The notes under the pieces are model-generated. The model worked only from the letters and a program-made list of their open reading frames with translations, did not search any database and was not told the origin of the DNA. Of a stretch of DNA of 45,764 nucleotides, positions 28,683-43,036 are shown one piece after another. Both the position numbers and the translations under genes were made by a program. Each line of letters opens with the position of its first letter. Position 1 is the first letter of the stretch. The stretch is from a virus, in the IMG/VR virus record IMGVR_UViG_3300006052_000013; one strand, 5' to 3'.

Positions 28683-28772
28683 CTCCTGATATGGCAACAA
28701 ATAAGCCGTTGGCTTATTTGTTGAGGTTTCCCCTCATTGCCATTACCGGCCCGTGGGCCGGCCCTCTGTTAC
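28683..28772 (-). repeat. long three-helix leader cassette (copy 1)
   Basis: ctcctgatatggcaa-[acaaataagccgttggcttatttgt]-tgaggtttcccctcattgccattacc-[ggcccgtgggccgg]-ccctctg. Confidence 0.65.
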
Positions 28773-28987
28773 TGAATACCCCGCGCCGGTGGTACGTGGT
28801 GTGCGTCCGGACGCAATACCCCCGGCGGAACTTCCATATCGGGCGGCGGCGCACATCGGTTCTGAGATAGAAGCGCCTGTTGCATAATCTCCCAGGCCTT
28901 TTCCTGTCGCCGGGCCAAAGAGAATACATACCATAGGTACAATACTCCCAGTAAAATTAACGCCAAACTTGCCAAACCTTCATTCAT
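28769..28987 (-). CDS. small membrane protein (72 aa)
   Basis: LASLALILLGVLYLWYVF transmembrane segment; internal ATG with a GGAGGGAACAACA RBS. Confidence 0.45.
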   Translation of the reverse strand: MNEGLASLALILLGVLYLWYVFSLARRQEKAWEIMQQALLSQNRCAPPPDMEVPPGVLRPDAHHVPPARGIQ

Positions 28988-28998
28988 TGTTGTTCCCT

Positions 28999-29031
28999 CC
29001 TTACCACGGGTATTACCCCGCGGCCCTCGGT
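28999..29031 (-). repeat. short cassette (inside the C-terminus of the sigma-like gene)
   Basis: cttaccacgggtattaccccgcggccctcgg. Confidence 0.5.
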
Positions 29032-30362
29032 TGTTCTTCGGTGACCGGCGCCATCCAGTGCAGTTTTCCATCCGATTCCAGGATTAATTCTTTATCTTGG
29101 CATCGACGGATGATCGAATAGGCCTGACCATTTGTGGTACCCGCGGTCATCATCTTCTGAACTAATTCGTTCTTAGGAAGAGGCCCATCGGCGAGTATCT
29201 GTTTTAAGACCGGTTCCCAATATCCTCGTGGTGAACGAGTCTGCGGGGCATTTCCATTGACCTCATCATGGGCCGTCGCATTAATCGACTTCTTTCCCGT
29301 GATAATATCGTGGGCACTTGTCAGTTGTTCAATCACCGCGGTCCACTTACGGGCCTCGGCCTCGGATTCCGCGGCCTGCCGGGTATAAAACTGTACCTTG
29401 CGATGGGCATCAGATATCAAAGACTCGATGGTCGGTGGTGATCCACTTGGTATTTGTTCCATTGTTTTCTCTCCTTGTTGTTTTAGTTGAAAGAGATAGT
29501 TTTGATGAACAATCTCTTCCTGGGTATACTGCCGAACCGGCCCCGGTGCTGTGACCGTCCGGGGGGGACGGAGATTCACGGGGGTTTTTGCCAGAAGTCC
29601 GTGCGACGTAAATATTTGATTCGGGGCACGAGGGTCGCGTCCGCTCAGATGGTAATAACTACCCAGTTCCGTTTCATTGAATCTGGACGCCCCCGCATTC
29701 CGTGAACTTCGTATTTGCGTCGGTGGTGGACTCCCGATGTGTTCCCGGGCGGCCGCGGCGACCAGTTTTTCGCGCCGCAACCTTCGTTTTTTCTTGCTCA
29801 TTGATTTGCTCATTGATTTGCTCTCCCACAACACTCGAAGATCACTCAAACCGTGTGATTGATAGGCCTTTACGGCCCCGACGGACAAATTTAAAATTCC
29901 GGCGGTTTCTTCCAAAGTTTTTTCTTCCAGAAATCTAAGAAACAACACGCGGCGCCGGCTCCTATTCAAATACGGTAACAAGCGCAAAAAATGCTCACGT
30001 GTGATCCAGGAATCTATGGTTTTATCCGGAGTATCCGGCAAATCCAGGGTGTTTCCATCTTCATTGATGGGATTATCCAAGGATACTTCTGAAAGATTGT
30101 TCTTTCTTCGTAGGTACATCAAAAATTCCCGGTGCGCAATTTGATGCAACCAGGAACTTAATTTGGCCTCACCTCGAAAATCGCCGATGGCCAGAAAGGC
30201 CTTCGTAAAGGTCACCTGGGCCAGTTCTTCCACGGCGTCTTCATTCAGTTGCCAATATTTGCGCAAAGTTTTTTTTACCCGCGATAACTGGTCACGATAT
30301 ATTTGGGAGAACGCGTCTTGATCGCCGGATTTTGCACGATCTAATAATTCTTTTTCTTCCAC
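29013..30362 (-). CDS. ECF-type sigma-70 family factor-like protein with a roughly 270-aa C-terminal extension
   Basis: Region 2: DAFSQIYRDQ...FLAIGDFRGEAKLSSWLHQIAHREFLMYLRR. Region 4: LRFLEEKTLEETAGILNLSVGAVKAYQSHGLSDLR. GTG start with an AAGGAGAA RBS. Confidence 0.6.
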   Translation of the reverse strand: MEEKELLDRAKSGDQDAFSQIYRDQLSRVKKTLRKYWQLNEDAVEELAQVTFTKAFLAIGDFRGEAKLSSWLHQIAHREFLMYLRRKNNLSEVSLDNPINEDGNTLDLPDTPDKTIDSWITREHFLRLLPYLNRSRRRVLFLRFLEEKTLEETAGILNLSVGAVKAYQSHGLSDLRVLWESKSMSKSMSKKKRRLRREKLVAAAAREHIGSPPPTQIRSSRNAGASRFNETELGSYYHLSGRDPRAPNQIFTSHGLLAKTPVNLRPPRTVTAPGPVRQYTQEEIVHQNYLFQLKQQGEKTMEQIPSGSPPTIESLISDAHRKVQFYTRQAAESEAEARKWTAVIEQLTSAHDIITGKKSINATAHDEVNGNAPQTRSPRGYWEPVLKQILADGPLPKNELVQKMMTAGTTNGQAYSIIRRCQDKELILESDGKLHWMAPVTEEQPRAAG

Positions 30363-30384
30363 TTACGTTCTCCTTTGATATTTA

Positions 30385-30417
30385 CTTACCGGGGAAATAT
30401 ATCCCCCGGCCCTCGTT
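30385..30417 (-). repeat. short cassette
   Basis: cttaccGGGGgaaatatatCCCCCggccctcgtt. Confidence 0.6.
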
Positions 30418-30430
30418 TTTACCACTACTT

Positions 30431-30601
30431 TTACACTTTCAAAACGGGATTTTCGTCCATCACCGCACGCTCGGCCAGAAACCCCGCCGCGGTGGCGGTG
30501 ATTTCTATCTCGCGGTGCCGATCCCGCACGGTGATTGTGCGGCCATTTAATAATTCTCGCAATTCTTTTTCTCCGAGTTCTACTTTAATTGGCTCTTTCA
30601 T
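30431..30601 (-). CDS. hypothetical protein (56 aa)
   Basis: Starts at the M after the long leader (...QERNM). Confidence 0.45.
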   Translation of the reverse strand: MKEPIKVELGEKELRELLNGRTITVRDRHREIEITATAAGFLAERAVMDENPVLKV

Positions 30602-30607
30602 GTTCCT

Positions 30608-30697
30608 CTCCTGGTATGGCAAACATTGCGGCGAAGCCGCATGTTTGAGGTTTCCCCTCATTGCCATTACCGTGGATTTACCCACGGCCCTCTGAGT
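30608..30697 (-). repeat. long three-helix leader cassette (copy 2)
   Basis: ctcctggtatggcaa-[acattgcggcgaagccgcatgttt]-gaggtttcccctcattgccattacc-[gtggatttacccac]-ggccctctg. Confidence 0.65.
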
Positions 30698-30714
30698 TAC
30701 TAGGAATGGGCTTA

Positions 30715-41593: not shown

Positions 41594-41888
41594 CTTTTTT
41601 GAGCTTGGCCCGGATTGCCCCGGTATCCACCCCATCCAACAGTTCCTCGACGGCCTGCGCCCATTCCAAAACATCCTCGGCCAGGTTATAAGCCCGTTTG
41701 TTTTTCGGGGACAGTGCCTCGGGATCATTGTCCAGGGCCGTGGTCTGGTCCTCGGCAATGATACTGAGACTCATCGCCTCACCATGGGCGACTTCGACCG
41801 CATTGATAACCTTTGCCAATTGCGCCTCGATCTTTTGACGAAAGAGACGTTCCGGAAGTACAATCAACTTTTTTCTTTTGTAAGTCAT
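41577..41888 (-). CDS. hypothetical protein (103 aa)
   Basis: Internal ATG with an AGGAGAGGAACAAA RBS. Confidence 0.45.
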   Translation of the reverse strand: MTYKRKKLIVLPERLFRQKIEAQLAKVINAVEVAHGEAMSLSIIAEDQTTALDNDPEALSPKNKRAYNLAEDVLEWAQAVEELLDGVDTGAIRAKLKKATRAA

Positions 41889-42009
41889 TTTGTTCCTCTC
41901 CTTGGTAAGTGACGGATCGACGTCATCCTTGCAACTGGCCGTTCGAAGGGGACTCAACAAACACACACCCTTACTAGGCGCGGGCGAGTGGAATCGAACC
42001 GACCCGTCA

Positions 42010-42038
42010 CTTACCGCCCGACCGGGCGGCCCTCGTTA
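42010..42038 (-). repeat. short cassette
   Basis: cttaccGCCCGaccgGGCGGccctcgtta. Confidence 0.6.
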
Positions 42039-42239
42039 GTGTTCCAACTCCACCAAACCAACCTCATCATCAACGCAGGTTTCATGACCCTGTTTCCACA
42101 GTTCCTCGGCCAACAATAGAACCTCTCCCCGATTTTGGAAGTTCTTTTTGGTATATTTCACGATCTGCGGAGACAGGCAATCAACATCCGTTGTGAATTT
42201 AATTCGCCCACCTTTTTCCTGTCCTATGTGATATATCAT
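42036..42239 (-). CDS. hypothetical protein (67 aa)
   Basis: Internal ATG with a GAGAGG RBS. Confidence 0.45.
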   Translation of the reverse strand: MIYHIGQEKGGRIKFTTDVDCLSPQIVKYTKKNFQNRGEVLLLAEELWKQGHETCVDDEVGLVELEH

Positions 42240-42334
42240 TGTTCCTCTCTTTTTGAAGTACCGGGCCGCACGCGCTCGGAGTCTCGTCATGGACTACTCA
42301 ACCATGATCTTGTCGTCTTGGGTGAGACCCGGTA

Positions 42335-42363
42335 CTTACCGCCTTCTCAGGCGGCCCTCGTAA
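42335..42363 (-). repeat. short cassette
   Basis: cttaccGCCttctcaGGCGgccctcgtaa. Confidence 0.6.
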
Positions 42364-42637
42364 GGTTCTGGTAAAGTGATTTCAGGTCTTTGCCCCCACC
42401 CAAATCGCGGTAGGGCACGGTATAGTCACCAAACGGTTCACGGGTGAACCGCTTCCGTTCCCACACCTGAAAGTCTTCGGCGACGAACAGGAATTCCAAC
42501 GGATCAGACCGCCGCCGGAGTATCCAGGTATCATCGACGATTCGCAAAATCGGTCTCATATAAATAGACCAACCCTGTTCTTTCAGATCGAGCAACAACT
42601 TGGTGAATTCTTTGCTTTGTTCGTGGTTCTTTTTCAT
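42347..42637 (-). CDS. hypothetical protein (96 aa)
   Basis: Internal ATG with a GGAGAGAAAACA RBS. Confidence 0.45.
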   Translation of the reverse strand: MKKNHEQSKEFTKLLLDLKEQGWSIYMRPILRIVDDTWILRRRSDPLEFLFVAEDFQVWERKRFTREPFGDYTVPYRDLGGGKDLKSLYQNLTRAA

Positions 42638-42653
42638 TGTTTTCTCTCCATAC

Positions 42654-42682
42654 TTACCACCCCGTGGGGTGGCCCTCGTCAA
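42654..42682 (-). repeat. short cassette
   Basis: cttaccACCCCgtgGGGTGgccctcgtca. Confidence 0.6.
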
Positions 42683-42942
42683 CCAATATCGTTATTGAAC
42701 CAGTTAGTAGTGTCCTGGTCTTTTTGGTGAAGTTCAGGAAATGCGTCGACCAGTTTGTCGGCGATGTTTTCGGCGACGTGATGACTCTCACTGGCCACGG
42801 CCGTGTATTCCCGTTCATAATCGGTACTGCCCGGCCCGACGTACTCCCAGGTTCCTTTGTTGGTCTTTTCGAACGTCTGGGCCTCTACTCGTACGGTCGT
42901 GACATAGACGGTGCGTTGTTCTTTTTGCAAAGTTCTTGCCAT
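42679..42942 (-). CDS. hypothetical protein (87 aa)
   Basis: Starts at the M after the long leader. Confidence 0.45.
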   Translation of the reverse strand: MARTLQKEQRTVYVTTVRVEAQTFEKTNKGTWEYVGPGSTDYEREYTAVASESHHVAENIADKLVDAFPELHQKDQDTTNWFNNDIG

Positions 42943-42947
42943 ATTCC

Positions 42948-43036
42948 TCTCCTGGTACAGCAACAAGAGATGTAATCTCTTGTTGGGATTTCCTCCCTTA
43001 ACTGTACTTACCGCGGAGTGATCCGCGGCCCTCGTT
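42948..43036 (-). repeat. long leader cassette (copy 7, variant)
   Basis: ctcctggtacagcaa-[caagagatgtaatctcttgttg]-ggatttcctcccttaactgtacttacc-[gcggagtgatccgc]-ggccctcgttca. Confidence 0.6.

Follow-up and report, generated by a model that had tools for sequence, protein, structure and literature searches.

The window analysed here, a stretch of 45,764 nucleotides of viral DNA (IMG/VR record IMGVR_UViG_3300006052_000013), raises the question of what a repeated three-helix RNA leader is doing directly upstream of a series of phage start codons. A first-pass annotation had described eight copies of it as a family of plausible cis-regulatory elements, in which folding would hide or expose the ribosome binding site, and it had suggested a riboregulator or a protein-binding operator.

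Seven leaders with a common three-way junction

A search for TTGCCATACCAGGAGAG with up to 3 mismatches returns seven sites in the window, all on the minus strand, compared to an expectation of 0.1, and they lie immediately 5′ of the ATGs at 28676, 30601, 32057, 32419, 34797, 39499, and 42942. When each copy is folded alone with RNAfold, the proposed architecture is obtained throughout: an upstream GC hairpin, a tight three-way junction built from helices P1′, P2′, and P3′, and, after a gap of 1-4 nt, an unpaired Shine-Dalgarno sequence (SD, AGGAGAGG). The leaders, each named by its start codon, are as follows.

42940..43033, minus strand: leader 42942, cassette, three-way junction, SD, and ATG; P1′ GUACAGU/GCUGUAC, P2′ GGGA-GGAAA-UCCC, P3′ AACAAGAGAU/AUCUCUUGUU; z = -4.2
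39497..39591, minus strand: leader 39499; P1′ AUGGCA/UGCCAU, P2′ UGAGG-GAAAA-CCUCA, P3′ AACUGAACGG/CCGUUCAGUU; z = -5.2
34795..34893, minus strand: leader 34797; P1′ GUGUGGC/GCCAUAC (one G-U pair), P2′ GAGG-GAAA-CCUC, P3′ AGUGCGACGGC/GCCGUCGACACU (one bulge); z = -5.4
32417..32513, minus strand: leader 32419; P1′ GUACAGC/GCUGUAC, P2′ GGGA-AAAAA-UCCC, P3′ AACAAGAAAC/GUCUCUUGUU (internal loop); z = -3.7
32055..32152, minus strand: leader 32057, 5′ of a 367-aa ORF; P1′ GUAUGGU/GCCAUAC, P2′ UGAGG-GGAAA-CCUCA, P3′ GAACCAAGAGAC/GUCUCUUGGUUU; z = -5.1
30599..30692, minus strand: leader 30601, with a twister-type P1 hairpin (30687-30670), UAA (30669-30667), P1′ (30667-30662 with 30621-30616), P2′ (30660-30656 with 30650-30646), P3′ (30645-30636 with 30632-30622), SD (30612-30605), and ATG (30601)
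28674..28766, minus strand: leader 28676; P1′ AUGGCA/UGCCAU, P2′ UGAGG-GGAAA-CCUCA, P3′ ACAAAUAAGCC/GGCUUAUUUGU; z = -5.9

P1′ comprises 6-7 bp, P2′ 4-5 bp, and P3′ 8-12 bp, and the z-scores against dinucleotide shuffles range from -3.7 to -5.9. Compensatory changes, which the annotation pointed out for the inner hairpin, are present in all three helices: the P1′ core reads AUGG:CCAU in five copies and ACAG:CUGU in two, P2′ alternates between UGAGG:CCUCA or GAGG:CCUC and GGGA:UCCC, and P3′ has seven different sequences in the seven leaders, all able to pair. Since three of the P3′ stems share CAAGAGA/UCUCUUG, few independent P3′ events are represented. Two details of the earlier description need correction, as P3′ is not always a perfect hairpin (the 30601 and 34797 copies contain bulges and the 32419 copy an internal loop), and the GG of “GGUAA” belongs in the minimum-free-energy fold to the upstream hairpin rather than to the enclosing helix. 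What is conserved is the shape of P2′, with its purine-rich G..A penta- or tetraloops (GGAAA in four copies; GAAAA, GAAA, and AAAAA in one each), together with the P3′ base (AAC...GUU) and the SD module CAGGAGAGGAAY, both kept in all seven copies. The LPYQERNM prefix that arises from translating through the element was likewise reproduced.

The folds agree with a structured element that acts at the RNA level and whose 3′ strand abuts the ribosome binding site, but they give no sign that P1′ occludes that site. Every minimum-free-energy fold leaves the SD unpaired, no alternative fold hiding it is predicted for the extended leaders, and the energy needed to open positions -12..+3 is ordinary, being 4.0 kcal/mol for genes with extended leaders compared to 5.0 for those lying outside the array and 2.6 for those with a short cassette; SD accessibility is thus no greater than in the short-cassette genes. 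The junctions contain only 0-3 unpaired nucleotides, in which no ligand pocket is apparent, and the seven encoded proteins resemble one another neither in length nor at the N-terminus and share no Pfam match.

An intergenic cassette with a twister-like core

The seven leaders turn out not to be an autonomous family but to belong, as a subfamily, to a cassette present in 36 copies, to which the three-way junction is a variable add-on. The array lies between a promoter-like and a terminator-like sequence.

45272..45300, minus strand: best sigma-70-like promoter (TTTTCA-17-TATAAT), upstream of a leader of ~1.3 kb and the array
27099..43702, minus strand: intergenic cassette array, 36 copies between early genes
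26986..27009, minus strand: terminator-like GC hairpin with a T-rich tail, directly after the last cassette

Apart from a weak match at 39702, nothing comparable to this promoter was found on the minus strand inside the array. An ECF-like sigma factor is encoded by the phage within the array. Each cassette begins 0-4 nt after the upstream stop codon with a 2-bp P2 (AC..GU or CA..UG), followed by GAGGG, a variable P1 hairpin, UAA, an optional closed leader domain, the SD, and the start codon. GAGGG and UAA are both intact in 34 of 36 copies (the 33832 copy has GAAGG and the 36226 copy UUA), stems, loops, and flanks being variable; the distance between the two conserved blocks runs from 12 to 19 nt, and P1 is capped by a GNRA or UUCG loop in 12 of 36. 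A cassette is present wherever the gap between genes measures 20 nt or more, overlapping gene pairs have none, and in the gene-free leader region the copies are degenerate. Matches to the covariance model R1 are confined to the minus strand of the array, with no cassette in the replication region, the late region, or upstream of the array. P1 and P2 are paired in 99% of cells, and both sides change in six of seven P1 pairs and both P2 pairs (the latter AU 22/CG 9 and CG 28/AU 3), a score reached by none of 500 shuffles, although all copies come from one genome, so that the covariation counts paralogues of common ancestry and some “compensatory” pairs may have been inherited from two founder lineages. 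No relatives of this phage were found.

The only Rfam similarity of the cassettes is to the type-P5 twister ribozyme. Eight matches to ribozyme families have E<10; every one of them is to RF02684 and falls, on the minus strand, on a cassette or on the element T0 described below, scoring 18-30 bits (best 30.0), and no cassette reaches the gathering score of 37.6. In the Rfam alignment the cassette corresponds to the P2-L1-P1 core of the twister, U^A cleavage site included, with P2, GAGGG, the cc..gg closing pairs of P1, and UAA in common, and UG-GC-AA of the consensus recurs in three extended copies. For the 30601 leader, the alignment of the sub-threshold match (30647-30696, 23.0 bits) runs CA-GAGGG-P1-UAAUG-GCAA, and P2′ falls at the position of P4. 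Comparison with Rfam thus yields a sub-threshold assignment, which covers the cassette and its cleavage site but stops short of the three-way junction. The catalytic loop L4 (GUCCCAAGCC) is missing from all 36 cassettes, leaving GAGGG and UAA with no partner in cis, and because the P4 loop is absent, pseudoknots T1 and T2 cannot form in cis. We read the cassettes, three-helix leaders included, as probable descendants of a type-P5 twister.

Arrays of bona fide Twister-P5 elements occur on other uncultivated phage contigs, and the 33 elements (38.6-66.2 bits) of six IMG/VR loci have the same layout: a stop codon abuts P2, and after the twister 13-38 nt with an SD lead to the start codon (29 of 33). 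They share with the window the P2-GAGGG-P1-UAA-P2 core, the cc..gg closing pairs of P1, often with a GAAA loop, an SD and start codon a few nucleotides past the last helix, and many same-orientation copies between small genes. However, L4 lies within 55 nt of every core in the six loci and no core is without it, whereas it is absent from 17 of 19 strictly scored cores in the window. Moreover, the scissile-site strand is held in the new helix P1′ in the extended leaders, unlike in RF02684 twisters. Processing of polycistronic transcripts near phage genes by bacterial twisters has been proposed, but not proven (PMC6765202).

Of the 19 cassettes with long leaders, 18 have a closed minimum-free-energy domain whose first nucleotide is at +1 to +3 relative to the predicted cleavage site (P = 6e-8 vs. 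shuffles), and in 17 the domain ends just before the SD, 11-19 nt 5′ of the AUG. The three-way junction is one of these closed domains; in its place, 11 other cassettes carry unrelated closed structures, hairpins or domains 16-220 nt long.

T0 and an orphan L4 hairpin

One element in the window, T0, possesses all the parts of a twister, and the ~1.3-kb leader carries in addition a solitary L4 hairpin.

44009..44139, minus strand: T0, apparently complete type-P5 twister, upstream of the first array gene (ATG 43976)
T0 core, minus strand: P2 GCA/UGC; GAGGG 44135-44131; P1 44130-44123 with 44099-44092, 23-nt loop
Between U44091 and A44090, minus strand: predicted T0 cleavage site
44083-44079 with 44029-44025, minus strand: T0 P3 (CGUGG/CCACG)
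44024-44009, minus strand: T0 P4-L4, CCAGUCCCAAGCCUGG
44568..44624, minus strand: element with the orphan P4-L4 hairpin CAGGUCCCAAGUCCUG (44609-44594) on a stem platform CCACUAC/GUAGUGG + GACC/GGUU

T0 matches RF02684 with 30.0 bits, at an E-value of 0.0079 when 19 kb is searched and of 0.00062 for 1.5 kb, remaining below the gathering score because of insertions of 23 and 58 nt, and the minimum-free-energy structure of its 131 nt folded alone recovers P2, P1, P3, and P4. The degenerate eighth leader copy reported near 44031 does exist, but it is surrounded by T0 P3 as an insertion and is not a leader of the same kind. Since this insert carries UUGCCAUACCA, identical to that of the extended leaders, the three-way junction is tied historically to a twister; helix-by-helix homology is nevertheless ambiguous, because P2′ in T0 may be part of the P3 insertion rather than a degenerate P4. 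The orphan hairpin lacks a GAGGG-P1-UAA of its own and gives a partial Twister-P5 match (44594-44632, 22.9 bits, E = 0.042 in a 1.5-kb search). Its loop AAGU is the partner of the “AC” T2 dinucleotide carried by UAAGUAC cassettes, a pairing also seen in bona fide twisters of other phages. Further decayed twister fragments are located in the leader around 44530 and at 44382.

Proposed ribozyme remnants and competing readings

With moderate confidence, we propose that the three-helix leaders are repurposed remnants of type-P5 twisters which punctuate and insulate the cistrons of a long early operon in an uncultivated phage of ~100 kb. The upstream GC hairpin would be twister P1, GAGGG and UAA the two strands of catalytic internal loop L1 with the scissile U^A inside UAA, and the two nucleotides flanking them P2. 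The next element in ordinary phage twister arrays is a P4 hairpin, whose L4 docks on GAGGG to build the active site, with the SD and start codon directly after it; in the window cassettes L4 would have been lost. In the extended copies, P2′ with its GGAAA-type loop would take the place of P4, the variable hairpin P3′ would be an addition, and P1′ would pair the strand that once belonged to the active site (A+2, P2a, and the T2 dinucleotide) with the strand just 5′ of the SD. Such a leader has probably lost self-cleavage in cis and would form a rigid closed domain stacked beside P1, which may hold the strong SD single-stranded at a fixed short distance from the cassette, protect the translation start from pairing with upstream coding sequence, and, together with the GNRA- or UUCG-capped P1, act as a barrier against exonucleolytic decay between cistrons. 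It is the geometry that suggests this insulating and stabilizing role. The invariant GAGGG and UAA are probably retained because a putative trans factor, either a separate L4 RNA or a protein, still reads them. RiboJ, an engineered insulator in which a self-cleaving hammerhead-type ribozyme and a hairpin precede the ribosome binding site, offers a parallel, as it too is a ribozyme-type element with a closed domain ending just 5′ of a single-stranded SD and keeps the translation start apart from upstream context, but RiboJ cleaves, whereas the leaders are natural and have probably lost cleavage in cis. In Cluster K mycobacteriophages, SAS and extended SAS motifs, of unknown function with a suspected translational role (PMC3203893), similarly stand in one orientation directly 5′ of many start codons, about half of them extended by an inverted repeat with a variable spacer; their sequences are unrelated to the cassette, the extended SAS arms are conserved in sequence whereas the cassette stems vary with compensation, and unlike for the cassette no ribozyme link has been reported.

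A twister split in two is a possible but doubtful reading: the 36 L4-less cassettes would be substrates still cut at U^A, with L4 supplied in trans or from long-range cis by the orphan hairpin (44594-44609) and/or by the L4 that self-cleavage of T0 would leave at the 5′ terminus of the operon RNA, and the closed domains would be protective 5′-terminal stem-loops of the 5′-OH products or clamps that block cleavage at selected junctions. The invariant GAGGG and UAA are indeed exactly the nucleotides read by L4, with no partner in cis, and the same transcription unit contains, farther upstream, a near-consensus L4 hairpin without its own L1. The AAGU of this hairpin is complementary to the AC of UAAGUAC in 12 cassettes, just as the AAGC of T0 is to the GC within T0; bona fide phage twisters covary in the same way (GC/AAGC and AC/AAGU), and the closed domains begin at +1 to +3 on the predicted 3′ product. 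However, only 3+2 bp would support docking in trans, just 12 of 36 cassettes have the AC dinucleotide, copies in which P1′ and other closed domains sequester A+2 and P2a would resist cleavage, and the orphan L4 may be a relic, given the decayed fragments nearby; we know of no natural trans-acting twister. We consider unlikely the free-standing translational operator or riboswitch of the first-pass annotation, in which the junction would bind a phage or host protein (for example through a boxB-like P2′ pentaloop) or a small ligand and switch translation of the seven early genes. The conserved P2′ loop shape, P3′ base, and SD module, and a structure stopping 1-4 nt short of the SD, would suit it, but the nearly fully paired junctions, the lack of a predicted SD-hiding fold, the unrelated downstream proteins, and an Rfam riboswitch search without a match all weigh against it, and the unrelated domains filling the same position in 11 other cassettes argue for a generic structural role.

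Stable hairpins between cistrons also recall REP-type stabilizer hairpins and T7 RNase III sites, intercistronic elements that shape mRNA ends and the stability of long transcripts, but those have neither an invariant GAGGG/UAA loop nor twister ancestry, and the T7 sites require longer duplexes. RNase III usually needs roughly two helical turns. It is quite improbable that a host or phage endoribonuclease, RNase III-like or other, cuts the cassette and/or the P1′+P3′ coaxial stack of ~17-19 bp, the twister likeness being ancestry only. Intercistronic position, stable helices, and leader 5′ ends forming terminal stem-loops would fit processing, and single-stranded GAGGG and UAA could serve protein recognition; yet the helices fall below two turns, the short cassettes offer a hairpin of only 6-8 bp, and no candidate nuclease is among the annotated window proteins. 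The PeSL cassettes of T4-type phages include an early promoter and have a role in recombination at the DNA level (PMC2839356, PMC4122927), and like the present cassette they are short conserved composite motifs that include a stem-loop and recur in the intervals between small, variable early genes. A comparable promoter, terminator, or recombination cassette acting in transcription or gene shuffling is very improbable here, even though nearly every small early gene is flanked, as with PeSLs (PMC4122927), and the phage has an ECF-like sigma factor of its own, encoded within the array: the spacing of the conserved blocks is not fixed, no -35/-10 pattern exists inside the array, homologous recombination would need longer invariant blocks than those of 5 and 3 nt, GNRA and UUCG loops are characteristic of RNA, P2, P1, and P1′ show RNA-type covariation, and the nucleotides directly 3′ of the hairpin, being used by P1′, must be transcribed.

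For the repurposed-remnant reading, the strictly conserved catalytic-loop nucleotides are hard to reconcile with lost catalysis. The array may nonetheless show what twister ribozymes do in phages and how their repurposing happens.

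Cassette array and three-helix leaders

The window, whose genes all lie on the minus strand, covers the early and replication region of an uncultivated phage that is present on contigs of up to 99.5 kb. From 27099 to 43702, invariably on the minus strand, there are 36 copies of the short hairpin with which the first-pass annotation began its leaders, each in an intergenic cassette of fixed order: the upstream stop codon, 0-4 nt, AC or CA, GAGGG, a variable hairpin of 6-8 bp (P1), UAA, and GU or UG, the two nucleotides 3′ of UAA complementing the two 5′ of GAGGG (P2). A Shine-Dalgarno (SD) sequence follows at once, in leaders of 12-25 nt, or after a structured insert. 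Within the array every gap of at least 20 nt between genes holds a cassette and overlapping gene pairs hold none, and a covariance model of the cassette core found no match outside the array in the 79 kb of readable sequence of this phage. Of the 36 cassettes, 34 have unaltered GAGGG and UAA, the exceptions being one GAAGG and one UUA. P1 and P2 covary: 99% of the cells in the model-fitted alignment are paired, changes on both sides affect 6 of 7 hairpin pairs and 2 of 2 flanking pairs, and no shuffle or slid register approached the observed pairing. Relative to the CA..UG form, the AC..GU form has lost one A-U pair, and its next pair is changed in compensation. Signs of recent duplication are seen near three cassettes, namely a 33-nt tandem duplication ATTCATGTAATGCCATTCCAAGATTTAGAGAT (32153-32227, minus strand) directly upstream of cassette 32152, and, upstream of cassettes 32513 and 33353, a repeated stretch of about 35 nt (32514-32550 and 33354-33390, minus strand) that includes the small hairpin CUGCGAUUxUCGCAG. 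The array also encloses a gene for an ECF-like sigma factor of 449 aa (29013-30362, minus strand) with regions 2 and 4 and a long C-terminal extension, which matched only itself among 5.8 billion proteins.

Seven cassettes are extended by a three-helix leader, whose junction helices are designated P1′, P2′ and P3′. In the window search the 3′ block TTGCCATACCAGGAGAG was found seven times, on the minus strand only, against an expectation of 0.1, and the P2 block four times when up to three mismatches were permitted; the seven ATGs immediately 3′ of the TTGCCATACCAGGAGAG sites lie at 28676, 30601, 32057, 32419, 34797, 39499 and 42942. The repeated leader proposed from the sequence is borne out by single-copy RNAfold prediction, in which all seven share a GC hairpin followed by a three-way junction with P1′ of 6-7 bp, P2′ of 4-5 bp and P3′ of 8-12 bp, the last unique to each copy, and in which 1-4 nt separate the junction from an unpaired AGGAGAGG. 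Their z-scores range from -3.7 to -5.9, and the P2′ loop is GGAAA in four copies and GAAAA, GAAA and AAAAA in one each. The variable hairpin postulated for P3 is present in every copy but is not always perfect, with bulges in three, and the GG of GGUAA is part of the upstream hairpin and not of P1′. Compensatory changes do occur in P1′ (AUGG:CCAU in five copies, ACAG:CUGU in two), in P2′ (UGAGG:CCUCA or GGGA:UCCC) and in P3′, yet the covariation claimed for them comprises few independent events because all copies are paralogues in a single genome. The helix counts were made by hand from the folds, as the MAFFT alignment of the seven leaders ignored structure, and the structural evidence consists of thermodynamic prediction and paralogues from one genome.

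The junction is the largest subfamily among a wider set of closed domains. Leaders were folded from A+1, the nucleotide following the predicted U^A site in UAA, through to the start codon; of the 19 with 28 nt or more, 18 have structure that begins at +1 to +3 (probability by chance 6e-8, dinucleotide shuffles), and 17 have a domain that closes 11-19 nt upstream of AUG, just before the SD. The closed domains span 17-221 nt, and the tail left after looping one out corresponds to a short-cassette leader. The SD GGAGAGGAA is common to the long-leader genes. Occlusion of the SD by P1, as suggested earlier, finds no support in the predicted folds, where the SD is unpaired, or in the opening energy, which is ordinary: opening -12 to +3 costs 4.0 kcal/mol in the seven genes, compared with 3.9 in the remaining closed-domain genes, 2.6 in genes with short cassettes and 5.0 in genes outside the array.

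Likeness to the type-P5 twister

At gathering thresholds none of the 4227 Rfam models matched the window. In E-value mode (E<10), all eight matches to ribozyme families were to the type-P5 twister (RF02684), on the minus strand and on cassettes or on T0, an apparently complete twister; the three remaining matches (two snoRNA, one CRISPR-DR) are at chance level. The top RF02684 scores, 30.0 bits for T0 and 29.7 bits for 27078-27128, do not reach the gathering threshold of 37.6 bits. The RF02684 consensus, cGCA-GAGgG-cc[P1]gg-UAA-UGCg-GC-Aaga-cCG-GUCcCAAGCC-CGg, has in common with the cassette P2, GAGGG, the cc..gg base of P1 and UAA, and its UG-GC-AA is present in three extended copies. The twister core, a P1 hairpin flanked by GAGGG and U^AA and closed by a short P2, is found in 34 of 36 cassettes and in 7 of 7 extended leaders. 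In twisters, the CCC of L4 pairs with the GGG of L1 (T1) and its GC or GU with the dinucleotide following P2 (T2) to form the active site. The scissile U^A bond lies within UAA (PMC6154101). Self-cleavage of a twister at this bond leaves 2′,3′-cyclic-phosphate and 5′-OH ends.

What the cassettes do not have is the P4 hairpin with L4 (GUCCCAAGCC) downstream of P2, which is present only in T0. The early region has just two occurrences of CCCAAG[C/T]C, one in T0 (44012-44019) and one in an isolated P4-L4 hairpin, the orphan L4 (44597-44604); searches for a hidden L4 up- or downstream of each cassette were negative, and most cassettes have no partner in cis for GAGGG. The position of P4 is held in the extended leaders by P2′ with its GGAAA-type loop, CCUC/UCCC is paired within P2′ and the T2 dinucleotide within P1′. 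L4-like remnants, UCGUCCCUCCAGGCC and CACCCAAGAC, occur in the loops of two long leaders (35824-35909 and 42239-42359, minus strand), which look like intermediate stages of L4 decay.

T0 and the orphan L4 lie in a leader region at the head of the operon:

44009-44139, minus strand: T0, best Rfam match (30.0 bits; E = 0.0079 in a 19-kb search, 0.00062 in 1.5 kb)
44609-44594, minus strand: orphan L4 hairpin CAGGUCCCAAGUCCUG, on a stem platform, without its own GAGGG-P1-UAA
43976-45270, minus strand: leader of about 1.3 kb, poor in genes; the best sigma-70-like promoter (45300-45272) lies upstream of it

T0 is composed of UGCA-GAGGG, P1 (9 bp, loop of 23 nt), UAA-UGC-GC and CCAGUCCCAAGCCUGG, with a 58-nt insertion exactly at the site of the optional twister P3; it falls below the gathering score because of two insertions. 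The minimum free energy fold of its 131 nt alone recovers P2, P1, P3 (CGUGG/CCACG) and P4, and T1 and T2 are possible in cis in the predicted fold. The degenerate eighth leader reported near 44031 does exist, as the 58-nt insertion itself, which holds a P3′-like hairpin and UUGCCAUACCA identical to that of the leaders, but it is not a leader of the same kind, sitting as it does inside an apparently complete twister. Other decayed twister fragments share the 1.3-kb leader, among them CGACCCAAGUAAG at 44382 and, near 44530, the degenerate cassette CAGAGGG-hairpin-GAAU, and the region may encode functional RNAs. The loop motif GGGACUCUCCUCC is common to two hairpins (44173-44185 and 44105-44117, minus strand), the second being the P1 loop of T0. 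The long-leader genes have AGGAGAG as their SD, to which CUCUCCU is complementary, and through this complementarity the 5′ cleavage product of T0 could serve as an anti-SD RNA. At the window edge (45725-45764), a 13-nt tandem repeat GGGCAACCGCGCC of about six copies, apparently within a small ORF, continues into L018 (2330-2405).

Comparison with other phages

Searches of GenBank phages, IMG/VR, JGI metagenome contigs and GTDB genomes turned up no relative of the phage or of the cassette. A 17.7-kb megablast query had no match among GenBank phages, tblastn matches to the primase did not exceed 34% identity, a primase scan of IMG/VR found nothing, and ENA, JGI and Logan contigs were 99.97-100% identical to the window. 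Scans of IMG/VR with the leader 16-mer and with the cassette pattern returned chance-level matches only, as did the cassette pattern in metagenome contigs (57 single matches) and GTDB genomes (40 single matches). RNA ligase homologues (52-56% identity) occur in non-syntenic phages without the cassette. A gene for a T4 Rnl1-type RNA ligase (22670-23818, minus strand) adjoins an Acb2/Tad1-like anti-defence gene (22283-22669, minus strand); such a ligase is of note in a phage with an operon that may yield 2′,3′-cyclic-phosphate and 5′-OH ends. The 851-aa product of an ORF at 18149-20704 (minus strand) combines a vault repeat with the shoulder domain of Major Vault Protein (E = 1.5e-26); it is unusual for a phage and has no PHROG match.

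Canonical type-P5 twisters are arrayed elsewhere. A pattern scan of IMG/VR gave 53 loci, several of them multi-copy, and at Rfam gathering thresholds six loci hold 33 twisters, 4-9 each, of 38.6-66.2 bits:

IMG/VR loci L097, L099, L124, L127, L128 and L129: type-P5 twister arrays between small genes of uncultivated phage contigs

Their layout is that of the window, with a stop codon abutting or overlapping P2, and in 29 of the 33 an SD and start codon follow 13-38 nt after P4. Every L1-P1-P2 core in the six loci has an L4 within 55 nt, whereas 17 of 19 strictly scored window cores have none. T2 covaries in these loci, GC with AAGC and AC with AAGU; in the window GC of T0 pairs with AAGC, the orphan L4 reads AAGU, and UAAGU-AC is found in 12 cassettes. 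The arrays support a general role of twisters in punctuating phage operons. Twisters adjacent to phage genes are known, and processing of polycistronic RNA has been proposed for them, though unproven (PMC6765202).

Origin and possible roles of the cassettes

We conclude with high confidence that type-P5 twisters punctuating the phage early operon gave rise to both the cassettes and the three-helix leaders. Several other identities were considered and rejected. Twister-sister is characterized by L1 strands GCAAG and GCUC^AU, an SL4 loop of GUGCAAGUC type and a three- or four-way junction (PMC5660989); the leaders carry GAGGG/UAA and GGAAA-type loops and have no such Rfam match. Hammerhead ribozymes do not fit in junction and loop sequences, and no known riboswitch or other cis-regulatory Rfam family matched at gathering. 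A tRNA-like or RNase P substrate (cloverleaf, or acceptor/T-arm mimic with 3′ NCCA) was dismissed as ARAGORN finds nothing; on inspection of the folds ACCA follows P1′ in one register only, without an adjoining T-arm. An intrinsic terminator would need the U tract that is absent, and a PeSL cassette (sigma-70 early promoter plus terminator-like stem-loop) the promoter pattern and T tails that are likewise missing. A two-block sigma promoter is at odds with the variable block spacing, and an N4-type DNA hairpin promoter with the P1′ and P2 covariation, which requires the flanks as RNA. DNA-level readings in general are unlikely, because the conserved blocks are separated by spacers that differ by up to 7 nt, the cassettes often have RNA-type loops and the helices use nucleotides directly after the hairpin. 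Improbable, though not among the rejected identities, is a free-standing riboswitch or operator, a reading weakened by junctions that are almost wholly paired, by unrelated downstream proteins, and by unrelated hairpins that stand in for the junction at its position in other cassettes.

In the three-helix leaders, self-cleavage has probably been lost, a conclusion of moderate confidence based on predicted structure: L4 is gone, the P2′ loop is of GGAAA type, and P1′ pairs the former A+2, P2a and T2. With its 6-7 bp, P1′ greatly exceeds the 2-bp P2 in stability. For these reasons we take the junction to be a closed structural domain. Such a domain would hold the SD exposed and near the cassette, would insulate the translation start against the gene before it and might, jointly with the capped P1 hairpin, hinder exonucleases. 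Engineered insulators consist of a ribozyme plus a hairpin, and an insulating or protective role of the junction is suggested by its geometry and by this analogy.

The invariant GAGGG and UAA need a partner to be explained, the candidates being an L4 in trans or a protein, either nuclease or binder, that reads them. We consider it doubtful, though worth stating, that a trans-acting L4 reads GAGGG/UAA of the L4-less cassettes as a split twister, in which one or two "enzyme" hairpins at the operon head would dock on 36 "substrate" cassettes via two short pseudoknots. The polycistronic RNA would then be cut into monocistronic mRNAs: each upstream product would end in a P1 hairpin, and in each downstream product a closed domain, for example the three-way junction, would start at +1 to +3. 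If true, the split twister would stand as the first natural example of a trans-acting, multi-substrate small nucleolytic ribozyme and as a direct answer to the role of twisters in phages.

In the part of the literature covered, we found no report of a twister-core array that keeps the catalytic internal loop but has no L4, nor of L4-less twister cores with a conserved three-way junction. The window and the arrays elsewhere display a recurring order of stop codon, twister, SD and start between small early genes, and the window is a natural experiment: the catalytic loop is gone from 36 copies and the active-site loop is invariant. Two outcomes are conceivable, a second, non-catalytic function of the core or a transfer of catalysis to a trans-acting loop; either would be new for small ribozymes. 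The window makes the role of bacterial and phage twisters testable. Synthetic operons employ ribozyme insulators, of which the leaders may be counterparts in nature.
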